The notes under the pieces: generated by a model
Told to the model about the DNA's origin: nothing
Database searches by the model: none
Seen by the model: only the letters and a program-made list of their open reading frames with translations
Shown here: positions 7,583-32,744 of the stretch, in pieces
How the letters are laid out: each line of letters opens with the position of its first letter
Position numbering within the stretch: the stretch's first letter is position 1
Translations under genes and position numbers: made by a program
IMG/VR virus record: IMGVR_UViG_3300037195_001519
Span: 1-33,147 of that record
Reading direction: 5' to 3' (one strand)
Origin: a virus
Taxonomy: Duplodnaviria; Caudoviricetes
DNA length: 33,147 nt

Positions 7583-10239
7583 TATGCAGCGATATCCCCA
7601 AATGTTTTCCATGTTCCAGGGCTACCACTAGTTGTGCATACCCACCCCAAAGTCCCCCCAGCCGATGGGGTTGCATCAATCACGATATCTCCTTGCTTCC
7701 ATGCGCCTGAACCAGGGGCATTAGCCCCATAGGATAATGAGTTCAAAGACCTATTTACAAGACTACCTAAATTATAAGTTATGCTTGTTTCGTTTGTGGA
7801 AGTGAGGGCATCTCTATCTATATTTTGATTATTGGATTCAAATAGACTTGTTATTGTCCCTACCGAATAAACCCTTGATTGAGTAGCCGAGCTTTGATTG
7901 TCACCCAACACATTATCTTGAAAGAAAACAGTGTCAAATGTATTGATATAAACGGAGGAATCCGTATCTGTACTACCTGTAGTTGTTTGAGCATTATTAA
8001 TGGATATGTTTCCTTTAACCTCTAAAACATACTCAACTGAGGCTGTCCCTGTCAGAGTCATTCCACAACCATTAGAATAATAAATTTTGTTATTATTGAA
8101 AGAATAAAAAACAGCAGTTGTGAAGTTAGGGGTTGCGCTATCTGAAAATGAAATACCATGACTTCCTGATCGAATAATTGTATTGTTATTTATATTTATA
8201 AATTCAGCATTTACCGCTATTAAAGAAATAGAACCCCTATTCAACGTATTTCCTGATATATTAACGCTATTTAAAAAATTTCCTACACCTGTGTTGTTTC
8301 TAACAACGATACCATTTCCTGAGCTTTGTGATCCGCTTGGGGCATAAGTACTATTATTAACAATATCTAAATTAACTTTTTCGCTCGCTGTTCGAGTGAA
8401 TATATAAAAATAAAATATTCCATCCGAATGATTAGTATGTTCGGTATGTATTTTATTGTTACTAAATAGTAAATTGGAATCATTTTTAATAGTTCCACAT
8501 GATCCATTTCCTCCAAAGTCAATTAATCCCCGGCTAGACGCCCCTACTTCGATAGCATACATATCATTATTAGAAATTTTAAAATTAAAACCAAGACATT
8601 CAGCTGCATATATTAGGTTTGATGCGTTTGCCTGTCTTATTTTATTGTTAGTTATAGTTAGTTTGTCCCCACCAATGTTAAGGCCTCCGTTAATGATGTT
8701 ATTATCCACAAATATATGCTCTGCATTTCCGTGAATATCAAAACCTAAAACCCCGCCACCAGTTGTACCCAATGTGTTAATTTCATTTCCTACAACCTGA
8801 ATGTCTCTATTTGATACACATCCTGTATAATCTCCACCACCCATAGTAAGTCCATGTCTCGATGAGGCAATGAAAGAATTGGATATGATTATTTTTTGAG
8901 AGTTAGATATCCCCAGCCCATAATTATTTCCTGATGGAGTTGAATAATGGTGGAACTTGAATTTATCAAGCACCATGTCATAACATTGTCTAAATTCTAA
9001 TCCAGTAAGATTGGTGTTATCTGTTTTTACGTTTTCAACTACCCCATCAACCCCATATCTTACAATAATACCGTATACAGCATTCTTAGATTTTACTTGA
9101 AAGTTTTTTAAAATATTTATTGTTGGCGTTATTTTGTAAATACCAGTTGTCCCCCCAGCGGTATATGCGTCATATAGTGGCTTTGATAGGGTTATAACAT
9201 TACCGCTAATTTGCTGAACCTTAACAAATTCACCGGCTCTATACTCGTTCCTTACAGCGTTAAAGGTAGCATTTGTACTATTGTAAACAATCAGTACATC
9301 ACCAACTGATAATGATGGGTCGCTAGAAAAAGTTATTTGATGATCACCTTCGGATAGATTTCCAGAAAAAGAAGGCAGAGCACTGCCTAAAGAACCAGCA
9401 ACATATAAACAAGCCCCATTTGTAAATGTTCCACTAGAGCTAGAATAGTCTAGTATAGTGTTTTTTATGCCGTCTCCTACAAGGTTAACTTTATCCTTTA
9501 AGTCAACCTCAGCATCTATGCTATACGTTCCACCTGATAGCTTAATAGTGCCTGAAGTAATTGAGTCAATACAATCCTGTAAGTATGTTGCGTTGTTCGC
9601 TCCAGTTTCGGTGGCTAAAAACCCAAACCATTCAGGATAATATTGTTGGACAAACCCCTCTCCAAATCTAACAGACCCAGTTCCAACCAATGTAAAGATA
9701 TCTAGTACAGGGGCTATAAATGGTCCATTAATCGTCAATGTTATTCCTGTAGATATTGATAATGTTGCCCCTGAAACAATCTCTAACTCAATGTTTGCGG
9801 GAACAGTAACATTAGCATCAATTGTAAACGCCCCTTGTTTTAAAACTAACTTACGTTTGTTCGCTCCAATATCTGTGATCGCAGCATTTATCGTTGAAGA
9901 ATCTAAGCTGCCATCTTCGTAATCTGTGGCATTAACAATAGTTCCGCTAGGGAAACTATCTACATAATATGTATTGTCTGAAAACTCATCTAATTTAACG
10001 TCATTACTATCATAAATCTCTACCTTTAACGTTCCGTCATAATAAACCTCGGTAGACGGAAGACCAAGCGTGTTTAACGTAACTTCCGTAACAGTAGGAC
10101 CAGTTTTGTCAGAAGCAGTATAGACTGCCCTCGCATCACTTGTGCCAACGTCAAAAAACTTTAACTTACCGTTATTCAACGGATTGCCATTAGCATCAAT
10201 AAAACTCTGGTTTGCTATTTGAACTGCTCTAGCGCCCAT
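7582..10239 (-). CDS. Tailspike / receptor-binding protein with right-handed beta-helix
   Basis: N-terminal particle-binding motif FIDANGNPL..GKL.FF..GT, pectin-lyase-like Asn/Ile repeats, and C-terminal P..G.W.QGD....P..GG..GWVCT..G.PGTWK.FG. Confidence 0.85.
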   Translation of the reverse strand: MGARAVQIANQSFIDANGNPLNNGKLKFFDVGTSDARAVYTASDKTGPTVTEVTLNTLGLPSTEVYYDGTLKVEIYDSNDVKLDEFSDNTYYVDSFPSGTIVNATDYEDGSLDSSTINAAITDIGANKRKLVLKQGAFTIDANVTVPANIELEIVSGATLSISTGITLTINGPFIAPVLDIFTLVGTGSVRFGEGFVQQYYPEWFGFLATETGANNATYLQDCIDSITSGTIKLSGGTYSIDAEVDLKDKVNLVGDGIKNTILDYSSSSGTFTNGACLYVAGSLGSALPSFSGNLSEGDHQITFSSDPSLSVGDVLIVYNSTNATFNAVRNEYRAGEFVKVQQISGNVITLSKPLYDAYTAGGTTGIYKITPTINILKNFQVKSKNAVYGIIVRYGVDGVVENVKTDNTNLTGLEFRQCYDMVLDKFKFHHYSTPSGNNYGLGISNSQKIIISNSFIASSRHGLTMGGGDYTGCVSNRDIQVVGNEINTLGTTGGGVLGFDIHGNAEHIFVDNNIINGGLNIGGDKLTITNNKIRQANASNLIYAAECLGFNFKISNNDMYAIEVGASSRGLIDFGGNGSCGTIKNDSNLLFSNNKIHTEHTNHSDGIFYFYIFTRTASEKVNLDIVNNSTYAPSGSQSSGNGIVVRNNTGVGNFLNSVNISGNTLNRGSISLIAVNAEFININNNTIIRSGSHGISFSDSATPNFTTAVFYSFNNNKIYYSNGCGMTLTGTASVEYVLEVKGNISINNAQTTTGSTDTDSSVYINTFDTVFFQDNVLGDNQSSATQSRVYSVGTITSLFESNNQNIDRDALTSTNETSITYNLGSLVNRSLNSLSYGANAPGSGAWKQGDIVIDATPSAGGTLGWVCTTSGSPGTWKTFGDIAA

Positions 10240-15923: not shown

Positions 15924-16727
15924 TTAAGCTCCTTTTAATAATTGTTTTTGTTTTTGATATCGCTTCATTGCATCTTCTTTTGTATTTGTACCTGGAACAT
16001 AAAGCATTTTTATTGCTAACCGTTTTTCGGCTTCACTTAAAGATACCTCGTCACTTGACCCCATTGGTGGCTGACTGGATACTCCGTCTACAGGGTCTTG
16101 AGAACTGTATCTTTTTGATTCCTGAGTCACAGAGTGTTCAGTGTTTACCCTTCTTGAAACTTCCGCTAAAAATTCAGCATTTGTTTTCTTTCCCCACTCT
16201 GGATCTTGAAGCATTTCATTATTAACCTTATGTGCTAAATCGGTTTTTGCATTATCAGTCCCATACCAAGGGTTATAAGTTTGGAAAATTCTCATTTCCT
16301 GTTCTTGCTTTGAATCTGAGGGGGAAGATTGAGTCTCTTTTTTGGGTTCTGGTTTATTCTGGGAGGCCACAAACTCCGCATAAGATAAATTTAATTCAGC
16401 GACCTTCTCATTGTCCCCTGTTTCTGACGCTTCACGTATTGCTTGCTTATACTCTTCTTTTTTAGAATTTATTTCAGAGGAGTTATGCTTCTCTTCAAGT
16501 GATTCCAAGCGAGATGACAACGCCTCATTTTGTTGTCTTAAATCACCAACTATACGCTCCGACTCTTTCCATCTTCCATAAACCTGATTAAATCGTGGAT
16601 GCTCTGGTTTTGGCTGGTTTTCTTTTTCTTCTTTATTTTCTGTCGCTTGTGGCTGAGCTTGATCCTGACCTTGTTCTAGTCCTGGATTTTCTTCGCTTAC
16701 CGTGGACGAGTTATCTTGTTCAGTCAT
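15924..16727 (-). CDS. Capsid scaffolding protein
   Basis: Acidic disordered N-terminus, coiled coil, NPWYG.D motif and C-terminal V.LS.AEK..A helix. Confidence 0.75.
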   Translation of the reverse strand: MTEQDNSSTVSEENPGLEQGQDQAQPQATENKEEKENQPKPEHPRFNQVYGRWKESERIVGDLRQQNEALSSRLESLEEKHNSSEINSKKEEYKQAIREASETGDNEKVAELNLSYAEFVASQNKPEPKKETQSSPSDSKQEQEMRIFQTYNPWYGTDNAKTDLAHKVNNEMLQDPEWGKKTNAEFLAEVSRRVNTEHSVTQESKRYSSQDPVDGVSSQPPMGSSDEVSLSEAEKRLAIKMLYVPGTNTKEDAMKRYQKQKQLLKGA

Positions 16728-17074
16728 TATTTACCCCCCTTTACAATAAACAAGACATCCTCGTCGTTAATAATTTCGTACTTTTCACCTTCAAACTCTT
16801 GCGTAGTGCCTGCATACTTTCCCCACACAATGTTTTGACCTTTCATAAACTGATCATCGCAAGTGTCGCCTACTGCTAAAATGCAGCCCTTAGATATTTG
16901 ACTTCTTTTTACATCTTCAAGGCTAACCCCTGGCATAAACAAACCAAACTTACTAAAGACTTGTCCATTTCGGATTTCAACCTCTCGCCCGTCATATTTA
17001 AGTCCTTTATCGTCATTTTCTCTTTTTACAATTATTCGATTGTATACTGGCTGTATTGGCAATTCTTTTTCCAT
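16727..17074 (-). CDS. groES: Phage co-chaperonin GroES-like
   Basis: IQPVYNRIIVKR, GL.MP, G.ILAVG, G..IVWGKYAGT and GEKY.IINDEDVL match the Cpn10 pattern. Confidence 0.88.
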   Translation of the reverse strand: MEKELPIQPVYNRIIVKRENDDKGLKYDGREVEIRNGQVFSKFGLFMPGVSLEDVKRSQISKGCILAVGDTCDDQFMKGQNIVWGKYAGTTQEFEGEKYEIINDEDVLFIVKGGK

Positions 17075-21700: not shown

Positions 21701-22287
21701 TTCACCACCTTATCCTTATACCTATAATACGTTGCAATGGGCACCCCAAACAAGTTACATAGATTTCTTATAGACTTATTACTACTTCCTTGTAACGCTT
21801 GAATCTCTTTCACTTGATCCATAAATTTAGGGTCCTTAATCTTACTTGGTCTACCGCCTACCTTTCCCCTCTGCTTTGCGGTGTTAAGCCCCTCCATTGT
21901 CCTCTCGTAATTCATTTCCCTTTCCATTTCAGCGAACCCAGATATAAGCGACCTCACAATCTTTTGAAGAACTTTCCCTACCTTGTCTTGCTCCCCCGTT
22001 GTGTTTAGGTATGGGTTGTTTATGCATTTAAACCTAATTCCTCTAGCCTCAAACTGCTCAAATGTATTTAAAGCCTCTGTAATACTTCTAAATACCCTGT
22101 CTAAATCTAAAAAAACAAATGTATCACCCTCTTTTAACGACTCAAACGCTTTATTTCTCTCTAGGCGATCTTTCCTTGTAGATAATTTGTCATAAAATAT
22201 TTTATCACAGCCCTCTTTTTCTAACGCATCTAATTGCCTATCTAGATTTTGATCTTTTGTACTTACTCTCGCATACCCTACTTTCAT
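21697..22287 (-). CDS. Small serine recombinase (resolvase/invertase family)
   Basis: GYARVST.DQNLDRQ with the catalytic Ser, GD..V...LDR..RS, AEMERE...ERT..GL, GGRP arm and C-terminal HTH (ATYYRY). Confidence 0.95.
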   Translation of the reverse strand: MKVGYARVSTKDQNLDRQLDALEKEGCDKIFYDKLSTRKDRLERNKAFESLKEGDTFVFLDLDRVFRSITEALNTFEQFEARGIRFKCINNPYLNTTGEQDKVGKVLQKIVRSLISGFAEMEREMNYERTMEGLNTAKQRGKVGGRPSKIKDPKFMDQVKEIQALQGSSNKSIRNLCNLFGVPIATYYRYKDKVVK

Positions 22288-22684: not shown

Positions 22685-23322
22685 TTAAATACCTCCTCAT
22701 AAATACTCTTTATCTCTTCCCTTGCCTTCTTATCAACTGGCTCATACTCCAAAACTGATAACCCCAACCCTGGAGCCTTCCTATAAGACTTCCTTATATG
22801 CGTAACAGACTCTAAAAGGGATATCTCTTTCACATCTGACAACATATCTCTTGCCTCTTTCTTTTCCTCCTCTGTGTTTGTTGGGCATTGTGTGAGGAGG
22901 TAATAAGCTTTTAACTTTTTATTGAACCTCTTCGCGTCTTTTGTCATCTTCTGTATTTTAGGTAATGTCCACACATCAAACTGTGTCGCTTGTATTGTGA
23001 ATATTATCTTGTCGCAGATAAGTAGAGCCTCTCTTAACTCTGTCGTGTCTTTTCCAGCTACATCAATCAAAACGTTTTCATAACGACTTGATAAATCTTG
23101 CACATCGTCAGCTAAGTTTTCTCCAAACTTCTGTACACAACGGATAGGCTTAACACTTAACTTCTTATCCTTAATCTTCTGCATTCTCAAAGCAGCCCAA
23201 TTACTGAAACTACTCTGAACATCGGTATCAACAACGATCAAATCGTCAATTAATGGGGCAACACACGTTCCTAACGTCGTTTTCCCTGTCCCCCCTTTTT
23301 CTCCTCCAATGGCATATATCAT
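22681..23322 (-). CDS. parA: Type Ib ParA partition ATPase
   Basis: Deviant Walker A EKGGTGKTT, VVDTDVQ.S and VLIDVAG. No N-terminal HTH, 213 aa. Confidence 0.93.
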   Translation of the reverse strand: MIYAIGGEKGGTGKTTLGTCVAPLIDDLIVVDTDVQSSFSNWAALRMQKIKDKKLSVKPIRCVQKFGENLADDVQDLSSRYENVLIDVAGKDTTELREALLICDKIIFTIQATQFDVWTLPKIQKMTKDAKRFNKKLKAYYLLTQCPTNTEEEKKEARDMLSDVKEISLLESVTHIRKSYRKAPGLGLSVLEYEPVDKKAREEIKSIYEEVFK

Positions 23323-23443: not shown

Positions 23444-24409
23444 ATGAATAAAATACTTTTGTTACTAATACTTTCCCTTTCTTTTGGGTGCTCTATTATA
23501 ACACGAGACACTGAAGATGCTTTCTATACCTATGAAATGAATCATTTATCTTTCAACTGCGCCTTCAGCCCAAGAGATACAGGTGAGGATATTGTTTTTA
23601 ATGGGAAAATGTGGATTAGTAACGGATATTATCACGGAAACGTTACTTCCAGAGACTTATGGTCTTCTATAAATGGGGTCACTTGGAATATGGAGGTTTC
23701 TGACACTCCCTATGATTCCTATAGTGAAATGGTTGTTTACAACGGTAAGATATGGGCCATAAAAGGATCTGTGTGGAACTCGTCAGACGGCGTTAATTGG
23801 CAATTAATATCCTCAACAACTCCATTCGGTATTCGATCATACGGCGAAACCGTTGTCTTTAAAAATAAAATATTTCAACTAGGAAATGGAATGGACGTAT
23901 GGTCAACAGAAGATGGCGTTAATTGGGAACTAATCGCCAATCAAGCCCCTTACGGAAATAGAAAAAATTCATTTGTTACCGTCTTTAATGGTCGCTTATG
24001 GCTTATGGGTGGGTATAGAGAGGAAACAGCTACCCCCCCAGAACAAGCCTACTCAGGGTTTACATCTTTTAATGACGTATGGGTTTCTGACAACGGGAAG
24101 GACTGGTCGCTGGTTACCTTAAATGCTACTTGGACTGAAAGGCAGTGGTCTATAGTGAAAGTATTTGATAACAAAATGTGGATCATAGGAGGGTTTAGCA
24201 ATAAAGAAAACAGAAACTTAAACGATACATGGTTTTCTAGCGACGGGGTGACTTGGACAGAATTTACAAGCGGGCTAATGTACACGCCACGTCATGAAGC
24301 TACAGTCATACCCTTTGAAGGAAGTTTGTATATACTCGCTGGAAACGAACACCCCGTATTAAACGACTCATGGAGAATCGATAAAGTCCCCGTCCCAATC
24401 ATAGACTAA
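23444..24409 (+). CDS. Lipoprotein with Kelch/Asp-box-like beta-propeller (moron)
   Basis: Signal MNKILLLLILSLSFG-C. Five W.S.(D/N)G..W repeats alternate with V.F...(M/L)W..GG blades. AGGAG SD, opposite strand to its neighbours. Confidence 0.8.
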   Translation: MNKILLLLILSLSFGCSIITRDTEDAFYTYEMNHLSFNCAFSPRDTGEDIVFNGKMWISNGYYHGNVTSRDLWSSINGVTWNMEVSDTPYDSYSEMVVYNGKIWAIKGSVWNSSDGVNWQLISSTTPFGIRSYGETVVFKNKIFQLGNGMDVWSTEDGVNWELIANQAPYGNRKNSFVTVFNGRLWLMGGYREETATPPEQAYSGFTSFNDVWVSDNGKDWSLVTLNATWTERQWSIVKVFDNKMWIIGGFSNKENRNLNDTWFSSDGVTWTEFTSGLMYTPRHEATVIPFEGSLYILAGNEHPVLNDSWRIDKVPVPIID

Positions 24410-24646
24410 ATCGTTAAGTGTTATATCTAAAGCATCTGCTATTCTCAATAGCAACCTAACGCTTATATCTGGCCTTAACTTCCTTTCTACCTGTGAATAG
24501 TACGTAAAGTGGACGCCCGCCTTTGCAGCAACCTTCAACTGACTTAGGTTTTTCTCTTTCCGATATTTCTTTAAGTTTTTTGATACAATACTTGCTAATT
24601 TTTCCCGTTCTAAATTCATTCCTTTTATTATTGTCTTTTGTAACAA
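24368..24646 (-). CDS. XRE-family HTH regulator (start uncertain, TTG 24646 or ATG 24619)
   Basis: LKKYRKEKNLSQLKVA.KAGVH.TY.SQVER...S...L.RIADAL.I.L.DL. Confidence 0.88.
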   Translation of the reverse strand: MLQKTIIKGMNLEREKLASIVSKNLKKYRKEKNLSQLKVAAKAGVHFTYYSQVERKLRPDISVRLLLRIADALDITLNDLVYDWDGDFIDSP

Positions 24647-26818: not shown

Positions 26819-27113
26819 TTAATCCCTTTGGTTTTTTAGCATTTAAAGTCATATCTACAAGCTCTTCAACAATTGATGATCCTATAGGGATATGTTTTTC
26901 AATCTCTTTACGGGAAAGAGCTACCCATCTTCCTTTATCGTGAGATTTAGATAAATCCCTAATTAAACTGTATTTAATGCCCTCTCTTTCCATTTCTTCG
27001 TCTACTGTTATAAATATATTTAAAATCATGAATTCATACTGCTCATCATCATCCTCATAAGGAAAACAATATGGCATTTTTTTGAATTTTACGTATTTTA
27101 ACGAAGATTTCAT
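26811..27113 (-). CDS. Hypothetical protein
   Basis: 100-aa ORF with AAGGA SD. First gene after the 27.1-27.5 kb non-coding region. Confidence 0.6.
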   Translation of the reverse strand: MKSSLKYVKFKKMPYCFPYEDDDEQYEFMILNIFITVDEEMEREGIKYSLIRDLSKSHDKGRWVALSRKEIEKHIPIGSSIVEELVDMTLNAKKPKGLND

Positions 27114-27211
27114 CTAAATGTCCTTTTTGTTTTTTTGCCAAGTGTGGGGGGGGGCGTAACAGATTATTTTGAGGGGTGGGGCCCCCCCCCAAGGGGGTGG
27201 CCGTCCTTTCG

Positions 27212-27241
27212 ACTTGCAATAAAGCTACTTGCAATAAAGCT
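27212..27241. repeat. 15-bp perfect tandem duplication
   Basis: ACTTGCAATAAAGCT x2. Confidence 0.9.
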
Positions 27242-27296
27242 GTGTCTCTTCCCTTGCCTTTAGGCTCTTTACCTATTCTATTAAGCTCCTTGAAGC

Positions 27297-27336
27297 TAGC
27301 ATAGTATAGTATAGTTTGTACCCTTGATATAGTCAA
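27297..27336 (-). promoter_or_regulatory. Sigma70-type promoter with TA-phased array
   Basis: TTGACT-17-TATACT (27336-27308). The plus strand reads tagca tagta tagta tagtt. Confidence 0.7.
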
Positions 27337-27395
27337 GTCTTTTTGATAACAAGTATTGATATTGTTATCTACGCACGAAAAAGGAAGGCTAATCC

Positions 27396-27427
27396 CTGTT
27401 ATCAATAACCTTGGTTTTTGGTAACAG
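27396..27427. other. hix-like serine recombinase crossover site
   Basis: TTATCAATAACC-TT-GGTTTTTGGTAA (27399-27424). The arms extend to 15 bp with 13/15 symmetry. Confidence 0.65.
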
Positions 27428-27518
27428 TATACTAAATATACCTTGCGATAGGTATGTTATATACTAAATATACCTTGCGATAGGTATGTTATATACTAAA
27501 TATACCTTGCGATAGGTA
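27428..27518. repeat. 32-bp perfect tandem repeat x2.8
   Basis: TATACTAAATATACCTTGCGATAGGTATGTTA at 27428, 27460 and 27492 (partial). Internal IR ATACCT-N6-AGGTAT. Confidence 0.95.
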
Positions 27519-27527
27519 CATAAGGTA

Positions 27528-28136
27528 CTAATCTTCTTCTTCTAGCAAAGCTAACTCTGCCTCTAATTTCATAACATCGTCTTCTTTCTCTCCGATGTCC
27601 CCTTTATACTCATTGATTCGCCCGTGTGCCATTGCAACATTTTGCGTTGACTCACCTTTTAATAACCTGGCTTTATCGAACATAATCCCCCCAGTGCTAG
27701 CTAATTGAAGCGTAGAGGCCTTCTCTACTTTATCGGGCCTCATGGCTTGATTAAATGCCATTTGGCTCTTAATGAGCAAGTCAGAGGCCATCCTGTCTTT
27801 TATCTTATCAGCAAGGTCGGTGTTCCCCAATAAATCAATATTCGGGTCATTCATCCAGCTATTAACTGTAGTTCTTCCCACTTGGCATATATCTGCGACC
27901 TGTTGATAGGTATATCCCTGTATTACAAGTGTCTTAGCAAAAACCTTTACTTCATCAGGGAACCCACTAGAACTTTTAGTTCTGGCTGGTAAATTTTCAA
28001 GCACATACCTTTGTGCCCTCTCTAGATTGTCCTTGTCTTCACCCTCATACTTCTCGAGAAATTCTTCTGGTTTTTTATTTATTAACTGATGGGGGTCTTT
28101 CTTTGGATCAGGGTTAGGATTTCTCTTTCTAGGCAT
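27528..28136 (-). CDS. Terminase small subunit-like HTH protein
   Basis: HTH (GYTYQQVADICQVGRTTVNSW), then helices with LA..GGI.FDKARLL.GESTQN. AAGGAG SD. Confidence 0.7.
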   Translation of the reverse strand: MPRKRNPNPDPKKDPHQLINKKPEEFLEKYEGEDKDNLERAQRYVLENLPARTKSSSGFPDEVKVFAKTLVIQGYTYQQVADICQVGRTTVNSWMNDPNIDLLGNTDLADKIKDRMASDLLIKSQMAFNQAMRPDKVEKASTLQLASTGGIMFDKARLLKGESTQNVAMAHGRINEYKGDIGEKEDDVMKLEAELALLEEED

Positions 28137-28184
28137 AAAAACATCTCCTTAGTATAGTATAGTCTATACTATTGTATTACATTT

Positions 28185-28352
28185 CTATTTCTTCACATAC
28201 CTAACTACCTTTTTGTAGTTTCGATTAATCCATTGTTGAGTATTTAGCTCATTCCAATTATTACGTCTTGCTATCTCACGAACAGAAAGCCCCTCGTTCT
28301 GAAGGGCTTCTATTATCTCTATATCATAGTCGTATTTTTTAGGCCGTGACAT
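28185..28352 (-). CDS. Small stand-alone HTH protein with Hin-like N-terminal arm
   Basis: MSRPKK...IEALQNEGLSVREIARR. Start reassigned to the ATG at 28352. Confidence 0.7.
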   Translation of the reverse strand: MSRPKKYDYDIEIIEALQNEGLSVREIARRNNWNELNTQQWINRNYKKVVRYVKK

Positions 28353-28716
28353 AAGTTTCGTTATAGACCTTTTTTGATTCCTTAAGAGATGCTTTGCAAA
28401 TATTTTCATCCACTAAAACTTTGATCGACTCTGGAATATCGTTATAATCAAATAAAAGACAAAACCTATCGGAGCATACAGACTCTAGCCCATAAACCAG
28501 TTTATTGGGCGATACGATAAAGGGTTTTTTTAAAAAAGGACGCTCTTGTAAGAATTTTACCCCACGATAATTAAACTCGGAATCTTTTTTGTGTTTTTTC
28601 TGGAATTGATTCCAACTCAATTGTTTTTCACTGTATTTTTCATTAAATAATAAAATTGATTTAGATGCTAAATGTTTTATTATTATTTGCGTTCTCTCTT
28701 TATCTATCGTTATCAT
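28339..28716 (-). CDS. Hypothetical protein, first gene of leftward operon
   Basis: Start reassigned to the ATG at 28716 (AAGGGAG SD), downstream of the promoter. Confidence 0.6.
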   Translation of the reverse strand: MITIDKERTQIIIKHLASKSILLFNEKYSEKQLSWNQFQKKHKKDSEFNYRGVKFLQERPFLKKPFIVSPNKLVYGLESVCSDRFCLLFDYNDIPESIKVLVDENICKASLKESKKVYNETYVTA

Positions 28717-28748
28717 TTTCTTTACTCCCTTGCGTTTAATGTCCCTAT

Positions 28749-28777
28749 ATAATATCAATGATATTGCATAGTGTCAA
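28749..28777 (-). promoter_or_regulatory. Strong leftward sigma70 promoter with palindromic operator
   Basis: TTGACA-17-TATTAT with TG extension. Palindrome AATATCA-A-TGATATT (28751-28765). Confidence 0.8.
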
Positions 28778-28778
28778 C

Positions 28779-29347
28779 AGGGCAGGTAAGGGCAGGTAAA
28801 GGGCAGTTTTGAAAACAAAACGGCCCTGAGTTATCCACAGGTTTTAGCCTCGGATTTACACTTATCCACAACCAAAAGGGCAGGTAGGGCAGGTTTTTTT
28901 TATATCTTTTATTGTAAAATAAAAAAAAACAACGTTATCATATTGTTATCAATACCTCTTTTAGCTGTTTTCTTTCGTTCTATTAAGTTAAAAAAAGCTG
29001 CCCTACCTGCCCTTTTACAACAGAAAAACAAAAATTCGAGGCTAACCACCTCTTTGAAAACAGGGCAGGTATAATCTAAAAGCTGCCCTTTTGCTGCCCT
29101 TTTTACTAAAAAAGCTGCCCTTTTGCTGCCCTAAATAGCCGTTTTAGATGTTATCAAAACTATCAAAACTAAACACTGCGTTATCAAAACAGTTCTCAAA
29201 AGGTAGGTTTTGATAGTTTTGATAACAAAAAAAGAGGTTTTGATAACAGTTACGATAACAATAAAAACAGGTTTTGATAACAATTGATAACAAAAATAGG
29301 GCAGAAACAGGGCAGCTTTTGTTTCAAATCTGCCCTGTTATAGGGCA
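28779..29347. repeat. Putative replication origin: AGGGCAG and GTTATCA iteron arrays with AT-rich spacer
   Basis: 15 perfect AGGGCAG (8 forward, 7 reverse). A 19-bp IR (28874-28892/28998-29016) flanks an AT-rich core. Also a 23-bp direct repeat at 29078/29110 and a 21-bp IR at 29149-29169/29207-29227. Confidence 0.8.
28831..28870 (+). promoter_or_regulatory. Two perfect DnaA boxes
   Basis: TTATCCACA at 28831-28839 and 28862-28870, same orientation, 31 bp apart. Confidence 0.8.
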
Positions 29348-29373
29348 TTAGTTATAACCTATAAAATAAATGA

Positions 29374-29412
29374 TTGGAATTAATTTGCAAATAATGTATA
29401 ATATTGTAGAAT
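29374..29412 (+). promoter_or_regulatory. Rightward sigma70 promoter(s)
   Basis: TTGGAA-17-TATAAT, overlapping TTGCAA-16-TAGAAT. Confidence 0.65.
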
Positions 29413-29486
29413 GTACTTAAAACTAAAGATAGGAGGTTAAAGGGAAGGTAAAGTATAGACAACAAATACAAACGCAAGGGTGAAAA

Positions 29487-29780
29487 ATGATAATAAAAAA
29501 TAAAGCATTAATAGAATTATCCGAAGAATTAAGAGAAAAACAATCAAAGTATATATATAATGTATACACTAAAAGAGCAGCTGAACAATTGGGATACATT
29601 GTTATTGGCTACCCACCTAATGAATACGACAAAACGTTATACTCTGCCTTAAAGAGTTTTAAAAGAATGGAGAGAGAAAGCGAGACATTGGAAAGAATTC
29701 CAGAGTCCCTATTCTCAGCAACAAAGGCTTTTATCGATGTTTTCAGCAAAGCATTAACCAATTTAAAAGGGTTAAACTAG
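29487..29780 (+). CDS. Hypothetical protein, first gene of rightward operon
   Basis: 97-aa ORF with AAGGG SD. Confidence 0.65.
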   Translation: MIIKNKALIELSEELREKQSKYIYNVYTKRAAEQLGYIVIGYPPNEYDKTLYSALKSFKRMERESETLERIPESLFSATKAFIDVFSKALTNLKGLN

Positions 29781-29789
29781 TGAAACAAC

Positions 29790-29924
29790 ATGGAAGTATT
29801 AATGAAATCATTGGTTGCTTTCATCTTAACGATGCTAGCAATCCCTATAATATACTTAATAGAAAAAGTAGCAGAAAATCATGATAAAAAGAAAAGGGGA
29901 AGAAATAATGGAAAAAGAACGTGA
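29790..29924 (+). CDS. Small membrane peptide (44 aa, not in ORF track)
   Basis: MEVLMKSLVAFILTMLAIPIIYLIEK... has one TM segment and a basic tail. Confidence 0.55.
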   Translation: MEVLMKSLVAFILTMLAIPIIYLIEKVAENHDKKKRGRNNGKRT

Positions 29925-30102
29925 ATGGAAGAGTTTTTTAAGTTGTTGTGGTTATATAATGGATAGCGACTTAAATAAGTTCAAATATCATTTGAAATAC
30001 GTTAAAAAAGAGAATTTATTAAGAGGGTTAAAAGACAGGGTTATGTATTCAGACTCTCCAGATAAATTTTTATTAGAAATAAAAAAAGTGGAGAGAAACT
30101 AA
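29908..30102 (+). CDS. Hypothetical protein
   Basis: Start reassigned to the ATG at 29908 after an AGGGG SD. Confidence 0.55.
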   Translation: MEKEREWKSFLSCCGYIMDSDLNKFKYHLKYVKKENLLRGLKDRVMYSDSPDKFLLEIKKVERN

Positions 30103-30103
30103 A

Positions 30104-30232
30104 ATGACAGTAATATGTGCGTGGTGTAAAAAATTAATAAGAACAACCATAAGTAATGAAAATAAAAATAAAAAATCACACGGAATATGCACTTGTTGTT
30201 TAAACAAACTAATAAAAGGGGTTCGAAGATGA
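30104..30232 (+). CDS. Small Zn-finger protein (42 aa, not in ORF track)
   Basis: MTVICAWCKK...SHGICTCC, with GGAG SD and an ATGA overlap with the next gene. Confidence 0.8.
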   Translation: MTVICAWCKKLIRTTISNENKNKKSHGICTCCLNKLIKGVRR

Positions 30233-30402
30233 AAAACAAAACACTTGTACAGATTAATCAATTATTTATAACTATAAACAAATGGGAAGATAATTTTAGT
30301 AATACCCCAGTTATAAACACAATAAAAAATGTAATAGAGAATAAAAAAGAAAACGAAGAAAATGAACTTAGGTGGAAAAAATATCTTAAAAGTATAAGCT
30401 AG
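30229..30402 (+). CDS. Hypothetical protein
   Basis: MKNKTLVQ..., with AAGGGG SD and ATGA coupling. Confidence 0.55.
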   Translation: MKNKTLVQINQLFITINKWEDNFSNTPVINTIKNVIENKKENEENELRWKKYLKSIS

Positions 30403-30496
30403 AATTTAATATACTAGCATATACTACACTATAAGATATGAAAGGGTTTATAAACAATAAATTGCCACACCTATAATAATATGACATTATTATGTG

Positions 30497-30556
30497 TAAT
30501 GCTGGCAGTTTGCATACCCTTGCGTTGTGCCAGCAGGTTGAGTTGTTCTTTTTTGG
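30497..30556 (+). ncRNA. Candidate small RNA
   Basis: Promoter TTGCCA-17-CATTAT (30462-30490), hairpin TGCTGGCA/TGCCAGCA (30500-30535) and a downstream T6 run. Boundaries approximate. Confidence 0.4.
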
Positions 30557-30691
30557 GCACAATCATTGGGCTAAAAACCCAGCAACACTATAGATTAGTA
30601 TATGCTAGTATAGCGTATATTATAAAGACAGTACTTTACTATAAGTCCATAACAGATCTATAATAGTAAGGTGTAATCCAATAAATAGAGG

Positions 30692-31081
30692 TTGATGATT
30701 GTGCCAATTAGAGAAAAAAAGAATATAATTTATAAAGAAGACACTAAGCATATATTTGATCTTAAAGATCAGTATGACCTTTCCCATCGGAATTACGAAT
30801 TAAAAAAACTCTGGGCGCTGAAAGAGTTTCAGAAAGCAGCGTCAAAGTTTCGCGTTGTTGAATCTGAATATAAGAGCCACAAAAGCAAATTTTGGCACGC
30901 AGTAGAAGAGCATCTAGATGCCCATGAGAAAAATTTAAATATTAATAAAGAGGGGAGTAATAATTCCAATTTATCAATTTGGATTGAATCATCAGACGAA
31001 GAACTTCCCGAAACAGAAGACTTTATAAAATTCATATTTGGAGTTGAAGGAAGAGAAGAGGATTTTGGACAAGATGTTTAA
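30692..31081 (+). CDS. Hypothetical protein
   Basis: 129-aa ORF with AGAGGT SD and a coiled coil, upstream of the helicase. Confidence 0.65.
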   Translation: MMIVPIREKKNIIYKEDTKHIFDLKDQYDLSHRNYELKKLWALKEFQKAASKFRVVESEYKSHKSKFWHAVEEHLDAHEKNLNINKEGSNNSNLSIWIESSDEELPETEDFIKFIFGVEGREEDFGQDV

Positions 31082-32744
31082 GCCCGTTGTCTTCTCTAGA
31101 ACAAAAAAAGACCGTCTTTATGTGAGGTGCTCATATAAAGACGAGGCAACAAAATCTTTAATCATTAATGATTTAAGGGGTAGTTGGAACACGACGAATA
31201 AAGCATGGGAATTGTTTAATACCAACTCTGTATTAAACACTCTTCTCCAGAATAATATAGATTTACCAGCAGAGCTAATTCCTGAAGAGCCAGACTTCAC
31301 CCCTATTAAAAAAACAAAAAATCTAACAGAGGTAGAGGATAAAATACGGCGTAATTCTAAGACCACGCCTTATGATCACCAAACGGCGTTGGTAGATTTA
31401 ACACTACAAAAGAAGAAGGTCTTTTTCCTTTGTAGTGTGGGTACTGGAAAATCTAAACCAGCTATTGATTCCCTTTCTATCTTATTCTCAGAGAATAAGA
31501 TAGATAAAGCCTTAATCGTCACCCCTGCAAGCGTAATGGAAAACTTCCAAAAAGAGATCAATGTCCATTCAAATTTAGAAAGCATTCTTATTCAGGGTAG
31601 TTTAATTAAAAGAAAGGATTTAATAAAAAACAACCCCATAAAAACGCATATCATAAATTACGACGTCTTATCGAAGCTAAGAAAAGATCTTAAAAAAGAA
31701 GATTACGACGCCATAATATTTGATGAGATACACTTTTTAAAGAACCATAAATCACAGCGTAGCAAAGCAGCTTACGACATAGCAAAAAAAGCACAATATA
31801 AGATAGGACTAACAGGCACATTGATCGCCAATAATTTCGTAGACGCATTTGGACCATACCTCGTTATTGATGATGAAATATTTGGAACCAACTTCAACCA
31901 GTTCAAAAATAGATATTGTGTGATGGGTGGCTACCACGCAACGGTTAAGATAATGGGTAGAGAACGAAAGGTAGCTACGGAAATAATAGGGTATAAAAAT
32001 AAAAGTGGATTTAAAACAAAGTTAGCGCAAAATAGTCTTAAATTTGAACTAAAAGACGTTTCTGACCTACCTGACGCAATAGAGATTAAAAAGACGTTTA
32101 CCTTAACCCCTAAAACTAAAAAATTGTACAACGAAATGAAAAATATGATGGTTGTACAAAAGCCTGATGGTGGTGAGTGCAGTATTGTTTTTGCAGAAAA
32201 CCATTTAGACCAAGTGTTAAAGATGCAAAAGATTGCATCGGGGTTCTTAGATGATGAGATAGACCTTAGTAATGAGAAACTCTTATCTGTTTTAGAAGTT
32301 TTAGAAGAGACTTCCAAAACAGACAAGATCGTTGTCTGGTGTCGGTTCACAAAGTCAATTGACAGAGTGGTCCAGTTTTTGGAGAAGCACAACATCAGCT
32401 GTTGTGTTTTTGATGGTCGTTCCAAAGACAAAACAATTTACAAAACCTTTAATGATGATGACACGAAAGTAATGGTGTCACAGATCAGCAAGGGCATAGG
32501 CTGGGATATTCCCAACGTTCGTTACTCAATTTTTTATGAGTTAACGTACTCTAGAACTGACCTTGTTCAGTCCAAGGGACGCACTCAGCGTCCAGCCTCC
32601 AAGCATAGCCAAGGTGTCACATACTTTTACATTTATCTACTTGGGAAAGACACGATAGATGAGAAGTTGCATGACGTTTTAAAGCACAAGGACTTCACAA
32701 GTAAAGAAGCCCTAGAATATGTAGAAGGAGGCAAAAAAGGATGA
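31038..32744 (+). CDS. SNF2-family (DEAH) helicase
   Basis: PYDHQ, VGTGKS, LIVTP, IINYD, IIFDEIH..KN..S.R, LTGT and IVVWCRF motifs. Alternative start ATG 31074. Confidence 0.93.
   Translation: MELKEEKRILDKMFKPVVFSRTKKDRLYVRCSYKDEATKSLIINDLRGSWNTTNKAWELFNTNSVLNTLLQNNIDLPAELIPEEPDFTPIKKTKNLTEVEDKIRRNSKTTPYDHQTALVDLTLQKKKVFFLCSVGTGKSKPAIDSLSILFSENKIDKALIVTPASVMENFQKEINVHSNLESILIQGSLIKRKDLIKNNPIKTHIINYDVLSKLRKDLKKEDYDAIIFDEIHFLKNHKSQRSKAAYDIAKKAQYKIGLTGTLIANNFVDAFGPYLVIDDEIFGTNFNQFKNRYCVMGGYHATVKIMGRERKVATEIIGYKNKSGFKTKLAQNSLKFELKDVSDLPDAIEIKKTFTLTPKTKKLYNEMKNMMVVQKPDGGECSIVFAENHLDQVLKMQKIASGFLDDEIDLSNEKLLSVLEVLEETSKTDKIVVWCRFTKSIDRVVQFLEKHNISCCVFDGRSKDKTIYKTFNDDDTKVMVSQISKGIGWDIPNVRYSIFYELTYSRTDLVQSKGRTQRPASKHSQGVTYFYIYLLGKDTIDEKLHDVLKHKDFTSKEALEYVEGGKKG

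Follow-up and report, generated by a model that had tools for sequence, protein, structure and literature searches.

A candidate antisense leader RNA facing the first genes of three operons around the predicted origin of an uncultured marine phage

The stretch of DNA analysed here (the window) is a 33,147-base virus record of the Caudoviricetes (IMG/VR record IMGVR_UViG_3300037195_001519), and its predicted replication origin raises the question of whether the two divergent operons that flank it are silenced by one RNA. A preliminary description had noticed the same 11-mer at the Shine-Dalgarno sequences of the first genes of both operons, together with its complement in a hairpin about 1 kb away, and had proposed a trans-acting antisense small RNA (sRNA). 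Antisense silencing of both operons is still the best reading of the locus, to which the present analysis adds a third target and, in a related phage, an analogue; the RNA is better read as the 5' leader of a helicase operon, with a second arm that would act on the gene behind it, than as a free-standing sRNA, and no terminator-like site follows it. Here it is proposed, with moderate confidence, that approximately 30497-30590 corresponds to a structured antisense leader RNA of the helicase operon, whose loop seed would act in trans on the two origin-flanking genes and whose second arm would act in cis. The features used in this argument are as follows (nt, nucleotides; aa, amino acids; HTH, helix-turn-helix).

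28185-28352, minus strand: 55-aa HTH-like gene, its start overlapping the end of target gene 1 (60% identical in the related phage G004; below the Pfam cut-off)
28339-28716, minus strand: target gene 1, 125 aa (homologues 65-67% identical)
28727-28737, minus strand: target 1, the Shine-Dalgarno region of the 125-aa gene, about 5-15 nt past the predicted start
28749-28777, minus strand: left promoter-like site TTGACA-17-TATTAT, 11 of 12 matches, the best of the region
29374-29412, plus strand: right promoter-like sites TTGGAA-17-TATAAT and TTGCAA-16-TAGAAT
29469-29481, plus strand: target 2, the Shine-Dalgarno region of the 97-aa gene
29487-29780, plus strand: target gene 2, 97 aa
30462-30490, plus strand: outer promoter-like site TTGCCA-17-CATTAT with TG, probable start near 30496-30498
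30500-30535, plus strand: seed hairpin, with an 8-bp basal stem, an internal loop, a 4-bp apical stem and a 6-nt loop (30515-30520)
30516-30526, plus strand: seed 1, complementary to the Shine-Dalgarno regions of both origin-flanking genes
30527, plus strand: variable base, found in the window and in L120 and missing from contigs of X1 and X2 (one sample) and of X5
30539-30566, plus strand: arm 2, in which 30556-30566 is a perfect 11-nt complement of 30695-30705 and 30539-30554 can pair with 30715-30732
30635-30664, plus strand: inner promoter-like site TTTACT-18-TATAAT (10 of 12 matches), whose transcript would be without both antisense arms
30695-30705, plus strand: target 3, the spacer and likely GTG start (30701, from the Shine-Dalgarno spacing) of a 126-aa gene
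31074-32744, plus strand: SNF2-family helicase, the second gene of its operon

Three complementarities are present at this locus, placed at the first genes of three neighboring operons and accompanied by promoter-like sites. The 11-mer lies where it had been described (minus strand 28737-28727, before the ATG at 28716; plus strand 29470-29480, before the ATG at 29487), and the third copy is confirmed as a 10-nt core on the minus strand at 30517-30526. Each target copy has the sense orientation of its gene; the copy in the hairpin runs antisense to local transcription, which is on the plus strand. For the window allele, the described complementarity of the seed to the two ribosome-binding sites (11 and 10 nt) is correct. 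The claim that such a repetition is improbable by chance holds in part. The three exact 10-mers compare with a mean of 0.03 and a maximum of one in 100 shuffles of the window, but the count alone is not unusual: other GC-rich 10-mers are also present three times, widely dispersed over the 33 kb, and it is therefore the placement that stands out. When one mismatch is allowed, the 10-mer has six matches against 1.41 expected, a number reached in none of the 100 shuffles. In the 1270 bases around the sites, with the origin repeats left out, the longest GC-rich word having three spaced copies is 10 nt, against a maximum of 8 in 500 shuffles.

The promoter-like site upstream of the hairpin is also borne out, at 30462-30490 with TG and nine of 12 matches. 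It is a middling match, one of 23 such sites in 3.2 kb (14.4 +/- 4.5 in shuffles). The hairpin, which starts about 10 nt past it, has a predicted energy of -18.9 kcal/mol (z -4.3), and its loop (30515-30520) is predicted to be open with a probability near 1. The seed had been described as the apical part of the hairpin, which is correct for 30516-30520 (five of its 11 bases) and 30525-30526, predicted to be unpaired, and not for 30521-30524, which lie in the apical stem; in the predicted fold this 4-bp stem has to open for full seed pairing. With the apical part as query, target 2 ranks first and target 1 second in duplex energy among 49 gene start regions, and after opening costs the targets rank first and third. 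The transcribed strand is probably the plus strand, judging from the promoter-like site and the flanking genes. The fold and the energies are model predictions, and for the region beyond the seed hairpin they vary with the piece folded: the minimum-energy fold of 30490-30600 is a four-way junction (z -1.8), the centroid of 30497-30590 differs from it, and the read-through RNA refolds. An A>G difference at 30584 in X5 was discarded as evidence, being unpaired or neutral in every fold.

The third complementarity links the same RNA to the gene behind it. The 126-aa gene with its likely start at 30701 heads the helicase operon, and perfect complements of at least 10 nt to the 99-nt candidate are found in three of the 49 start regions, all three belonging to the first genes of the surrounding operons. 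Among 1000 shuffled candidates, zero, one and two matching start regions were found in 847, 131 and 22 cases, respectively, and three in none; for the next gene alone, an 11-nt complement was found in five of 5000 shuffles. In the read-through RNA (30497-30740; -69.2 kcal/mol, z -5.2), 30539-30566 is predicted to pair with 30695-30732, with arm-to-start pair probabilities of 0.72-1.0, and the seed hairpin stays folded and free with its loop open. In trans, arm 2 is weak (net -4.9), and therefore it most likely acts in cis.

Taken in sequence, the proposed mechanism would begin with a leader RNA made from the outer promoter (30462-30490). Its C-rich loop would make the first contact, after which the 4-bp apical stem is predicted to unzip, giving 10-13 bp over the Shine-Dalgarno sequence, so that the loop seed would block ribosome loading on both origin-flanking genes in trans, while arm 2 would hide the start of the first gene of its own operon in cis. 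A translation block of a first gene may be polar on the genes behind it (Rho polarity), since the HTH gene overlaps target gene 1 and the helicase follows the gene of target 3. The inner promoter (30635-30664) would give a message that bypasses arm 2, and a protein bound to the palindromes on both flanks of the locus may choose between the outer and inner promoters. RNA and protein repressors together would then help to hold a quiet plasmid state and superinfection immunity; the two origin-flanking operons may be early operons, and the switch may govern the choice between lysis and the plasmid state.

A natural variant exists within the seed hairpin. In two of four samples, contigs (those of X1, X2 and X5) are without base 30527 at full depth, and contigs of X3 and X4 end exactly at it; these observations were read from contigs, in which a real allele and an error look alike. 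When the base is absent, the seed matches, of 11 and 10 nt in the window, lengthen to 13 and 11 nt, the hairpin persists, and the 60-codon open reading frame (ORF) over the hairpin is cut to 19 codons.

An element of analogous layout is found in G004 (holding L042), a phage record of the same family in which 16 window proteins have matches (capsid 56%, portal 45%, TerS 34%, HTH 60% and helicase 39% identity). The element, approximately 350 bases from the G004 HTH gene, combines a promoter-like site with a U-tract and a hairpin (-28.6 kcal/mol, z -7.8), and CCCUUUCACC is exposed in it. The exact complement of CCCUUUCACC is found at the Shine-Dalgarno sequence of the G004 tyrosine integrase, 14 nt past TTGACA-17-TATTAT, at that of a 38-codon leader ORF just past a promoter-like site, and over the ATG of a short opposite-strand frame beside the hairpin (this frame found by eye). 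The 10-mer has four copies in G004 against 0.09 expected. The seeds of the two phages pair with the sites of their own phage at -18.5 to -23.6 and with those of the other phage at -7.7 to -12.0. No cis arm resembling arm 2 was predicted in G004. The G004 element was first spotted by eye, and the settings of the generic test for such elements were fixed afterwards: a first version, counting ORFs of at least 45 aa, missed G004 and scored the window hairpin as coding owing to the ORF at 30481-30663; the second used words of 10, counted ORFs of 30 aa and ignored ORFs below 80 aa as cover. With the second version the window and G004 pass, as does one of 80 background loci at -15 kcal/mol and none at -18 kcal/mol (80 non-redundant loci of 96, 1.18 Mb). 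The G004 element is thus an analogue that gives moderate support to the antisense leader.

Other observations were made in G004. It encodes a primase-helicase. A tRNA-like 3' part (28890-28950; L129 8890-8950, by eye) lies just upstream of the integrase and is likely the attP core; G004 appears to be integrative and the window phage plasmid-like. Integrase arm sites were discarded as an explanation for the G004 word, since the repeats beside the tRNA-like attP stretch differ from it in sequence (by eye). The 38-codon ORF (43524-43704; L130 3524-3704, minus strand) contains a perfect 25-bp hairpin, then a U-run and a second hairpin, and looks like a translation-coupled attenuator.

Several results weigh against an antisense leader RNA. 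With full leaders its net pairing energies are modest, at -8.4 to -9.5 kcal/mol, and the longer-match allele without base 30527 gains just 0.2-0.3 kcal/mol. The start region of the resolvase gene ranks second after opening costs (-10.3), scoring as well as the targets. In co-folding, the seed duplex is formed for target 2 and not for target 1; with the whole RNA as query, target 2 is fifth and target 1 falls outside the top eight. With the apical part as query the targets lead among the start regions, but over the whole genome two coding sites match or beat them. Coding DNA also contains perfect complements to other parts of the candidate, one of 13 nt at 9625 and one of 11 nt at 16346. Folding fits either strand, with -69.2 (z -5.2) for the plus and -60.6 (z -5.0) for the minus strand, and 8 against 7 G-U pairs. 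There is no terminator-like site after the hairpin or between it and the next gene, and therefore a free RNA 3' end would need processing or Rho-dependent termination. As for G004, the two RNAs have only CCCUU in common and are not alignable (the comparison found the HTH gene alone), the G004 targets are other genes, and the operon holding the G004 HTH gene is not targeted. G004 passes the test only with the 30-aa ORF setting, which was chosen post hoc, and fails at 45 aa; with a word length of 11, both the window and G004 fail. Eight other phage records fail at -15, among them G006 (capsid 48%, complete), the next family member, which has no such element and only a chance-level 9-mer. Finally, no orthologous control region was obtained from viral, metagenome or genome contigs or from GenBank phages.

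The searches for relatives gave the following. A scan of metagenome contigs covered 57 of 64 parts, and the matches listed in it were just two copies of this phage; genome contigs gave distant helicases only (22-29%). Closer relatives are known as proteins, with 79% and 60% identity for the helicase, 45-77% for TerS and 65-67% for target gene 1. A 15-base scan of viral contigs returned 35 loci, each with a single copy and none resembling the window in its DNA, and these were set aside as chance. Target genes 1 and 2 are without a family match in PHROGs, Pfam and Atlas, and a profile search for their functions gave one homologue.

The protein regulators of the phage bear on what an RNA would be needed for. 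The preliminary description had taken the locus as one without a CI/Cro pair; this is true of the first genes, but an XRE-family HTH protein (24368-24646; PF01381, E 6e-14), the 55-aa HTH-like gene and a ParG-like gene are all encoded. The palindromic motif TAGTATA-N3-TATACTA occurs 15 times when as many as three mismatches are allowed, against 3.35 expected (23349, 27307, 27450, 27482, 28150-28176, 30400-30431 and 30591-30622); 14 of the sites are intergenic. They lie at the parA and TerS promoters, in the 32-bp repeats behind TerS and on both flanks of the RNA locus. The two groups closest to the RNA are these.

30400-30431: degenerate palindromes upstream of the RNA promoter (sites 30400, 30410 and 30415)
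30591-30622: degenerate palindromes between the RNA and the inner promoter (sites 30591, 30596 and 30606)

The palindrome is a candidate site for the ParG-like, the XRE or the small HTH protein, and at up to two mismatches it is absent from G001-G005. With an XRE repressor, an HTH gene, a ParG-like gene and a palindromic operator-like motif around the locus, the proposed RNA switch in place of CI/Cro is unsupported, and therefore the RNA is best regarded as one control layer alongside protein repressors, an arrangement also found in P1. Two repeats nearby were recorded in addition. The 32-bp tandem repeat behind TerS (27428-27520) has three copies in the window and two in L120 and L121, and is collapsed to a 59-base piece in the run contigs, so that its true copy number is unsure; each unit combines a degenerate palindrome with a 6-bp inverted repeat that carries CCTTGCG, the seed core. 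It is a possible partition site, and was rejected as an RNA sponge, being self-folding and giving no pairing in co-folding. A purine-rich word that includes the target 10-mer with one mismatch is repeated at 27245-27261 and 22713-22728 (minus strand), in the leader of the 27113 operon and at the parA end, respectively, and is possibly a weak fourth target.

Among the rival explanations, the repeated word may be a DNA operator, with one protein binding CCTTGCG sites past the left promoter, in the right leader, past the third promoter and in the 32-bp repeats. The phage encodes at least three DNA-binding proteins, the 7-mer core occurs six times between 27.4 and 30.6 kb, always in non-coding DNA and three times within the 32-bp repeats, and a promoter-like site near 27321 also has CAAGGGTA in its spacer (by eye); likewise, the 15-bp arms of G004 could serve the adjacent TraY-like gene as a DNA operator. 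However, the word is not palindromic, two of its copies are Shine-Dalgarno sequences and the third is a hairpin loop, a distinct palindromic motif already occupies the phage promoters (14 of its 15 sites being intergenic), and an operator leaves arm 2, target 3 and the analogous element of G004 unexplained, which makes it unlikely. Nearly as much can be said for a real function of the cis part alone, in which the leader hides the helicase-operon start and the outer matches are an old leader duplication plus chance. The cis duplex is far more stable than the trans duplexes, and the two outer start regions are alike beyond the 11-mer and into the first codons, as a duplication would give; yet a duplication accounts for two copies and not for the reversed third in a free hairpin loop, and none of the 80 background loci has the pattern at -18 kcal/mol, so that this explanation is improbable.

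The remaining explanations keep an RNA and change its role. Since the seed hairpin and the start-hiding arm lie on one predicted transcript, with no terminator between them and the helicase operon, the signal might run in reverse, the outer messages binding the loop and switching the helicase leader on, and thereby linking replication with early transcription; no base is common to the two domains in the predicted fold, so that loop binding would not free the start, and we regard this as very unlikely. Slightly less probable still is that the word is the site of a translational repressor protein and the minus-strand RNA 30535-30500 its decoy: the minus strand does fold (-16.2, z -3.1) with the word in target orientation, as in the 32-bp repeats, but the nearest minus-strand promoter-like site, at 30626, is not close upstream, the structural setting of the word differs between copies, and no RNA-binding protein was recognised. 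The least credible explanation assigns the hairpin to a small protein-coding gene of 60 aa (30481-30663); an ATG-started ORF does span it, without a Shine-Dalgarno-like sequence and with only 19 codons when base 30527 is absent. The antisense leader RNA is therefore retained as the preferred reading.

To our knowledge, few phage RNAs control the life cycle of their own phage by short trans pairing; C4 of P1 and CI of P4 are the textbook cases, each acting on one operon. No Rfam family match was found, and the C4 family RF01695 had no match at E up to 5 in 27000-31500, none at the gathering score in the whole window and none in three records at E up to 10. C4 has three stem-loops, is matured by RNase P and places its b' loop over ribosome-binding sites, with a 4-nt difference separating the C4 RNAs of P1 and P7 (PMC5320573); in P1, the operon is formed by c4, icd and ant1/2 and works with the C1 repressor (PMC8198154); a review was also used (PMC12197685). 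The candidate resembles C4 of P1 and P7 in the short trans-type complementarity of a structured RNA to ribosome-binding regions, in its position beside a protein repressor and at the head of an operon predicted to be repressed, here by layout only (arm 2 against the next gene start; PMC8198154), and in its few-base differences, which in C4 set the specificity between related phages (PMC5320573). Unlike C4, it would target the first genes of three separate operons, of which two lie outside its own transcript; one loop seed would serve targets 1 and 2 and a separate stem arm target 3, whereas in C4 the loop seeds a' and b' both pair with each target; and in place of the icd/antirepressor operon, the 126-aa gene and the SNF2 helicase are found downstream, with no antirepressor recognised among them.

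In P4, the CI RNA pairs with seqA and seqC and stops the replication genes (PMC4825925). As with CI, the candidate lies in the leader of a replication operon and would pair with a site farther down its own transcript, the counterpart of seqC in P4 (PMC4825925); unlike CI, it has no seqA equivalent (no complement of at least 9 nt between the promoter and the hairpin), it has additional targets in two divergent operons, and it has no Rfam match. The SAS (start-associated sequence) of cluster K mycobacteriophages is an asymmetric word over the ribosome-binding site of selected genes with a rare reverse copy. The asymmetric word and its reverse-orientation copy are shared with the present locus (PMC3203893), which differs in having two sense copies instead of many, an unrelated sequence, and the reverse copy in a hairpin past a promoter-like site. 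It is likely, by analogy, that the element works like P1 C4 or P4 CI and is a member of neither. CI in P4 acts by premature termination ahead of the replication genes, and in the window a helicase operon lies behind the candidate.

The general context of the phage agrees with a plasmid-like life. The record is about 85% complete, and the same proteins sit on a 39,204-base contig, so that approximately 6 kb of the phage are unseen. Its DNA is present in marine DNA runs from two studies, each of which may be a source of this DNA, and no RNA run was listed as containing it. Its structural genes are of the P22-like tail type (DNA ejection, head closure). A serine resolvase, ParA and a ParG-like gene (match below the cut-off) are encoded. 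No integrase was seen in the window, no tRNA was found in a tRNA search, and no initiator gene was seen in the window; one is possibly within the missing 6 kb. The origin is predicted as follows.

28775-29347: predicted replication origin, with 15 AGGGCAG repeats, seven TTGATAAC repeats and two TTATCCACA boxes

The two TTATCCACA boxes are presumably DnaA boxes; the two iteron families (15 and seven copies) are nested inverted repeats, and both GC skew and AT skew change sign over the stretch. Together, the resolvase, ParA, the ParG-like gene and the iteron-rich stretch point to a phage-plasmid. Codons 3-7 of the resolvase (22270-22281, minus strand) can pair over 12 bases with the seed hairpin; the site is within the conserved G-Y-A-R motif, and the pairing is therefore perhaps chance. 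A GroES-like co-chaperonin gene (16727-17074; PF00166, E 3e-9) lies between the portal and head genes and is also found in G004 and G006. A Kelch-repeat protein (23444-24409, plus strand) with a lipoprotein-like N-terminus (by eye), the sole plus-strand gene of the left arm, is a possible superinfection-exclusion or lysogenic-conversion gene. The X2 contigs break in or beside the TerS gene (27489-28241), with stepped depths of 185, 243, 430 and 291, as a headful packaging start (pac) would give, contig depth being a weak measure.

Altogether, the feature is real and non-random, and it is likely to be a C4/CI-like antisense leader RNA that has three targets and belongs to an undescribed family; a literature search, with subscription papers mostly outside its coverage, found no report of this phage or RNA. 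The principle is already known, which limits the surprise, and the design of C4 and CI would be extended by control of three operons through a trans arm and a separate cis arm. The element is shorter than 100 nt, has three targets defined to the base and a natural seed variant, and is thus open to direct reporter tests. A broader and doubtful possibility is that the master switch of this podovirus-like family is a leader RNA whose seed can be exchanged, in which a CCCUU anti-Shine-Dalgarno core with a phage-specific tail would silence the first genes of several operons, a second arm would lock the replication operon, and seed swaps or one-base variants would make immunity groups of marine phages. 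The different, self-matching seed of G004 suggests that such RNA-defined immunity groups may exist among uncultured marine phages.

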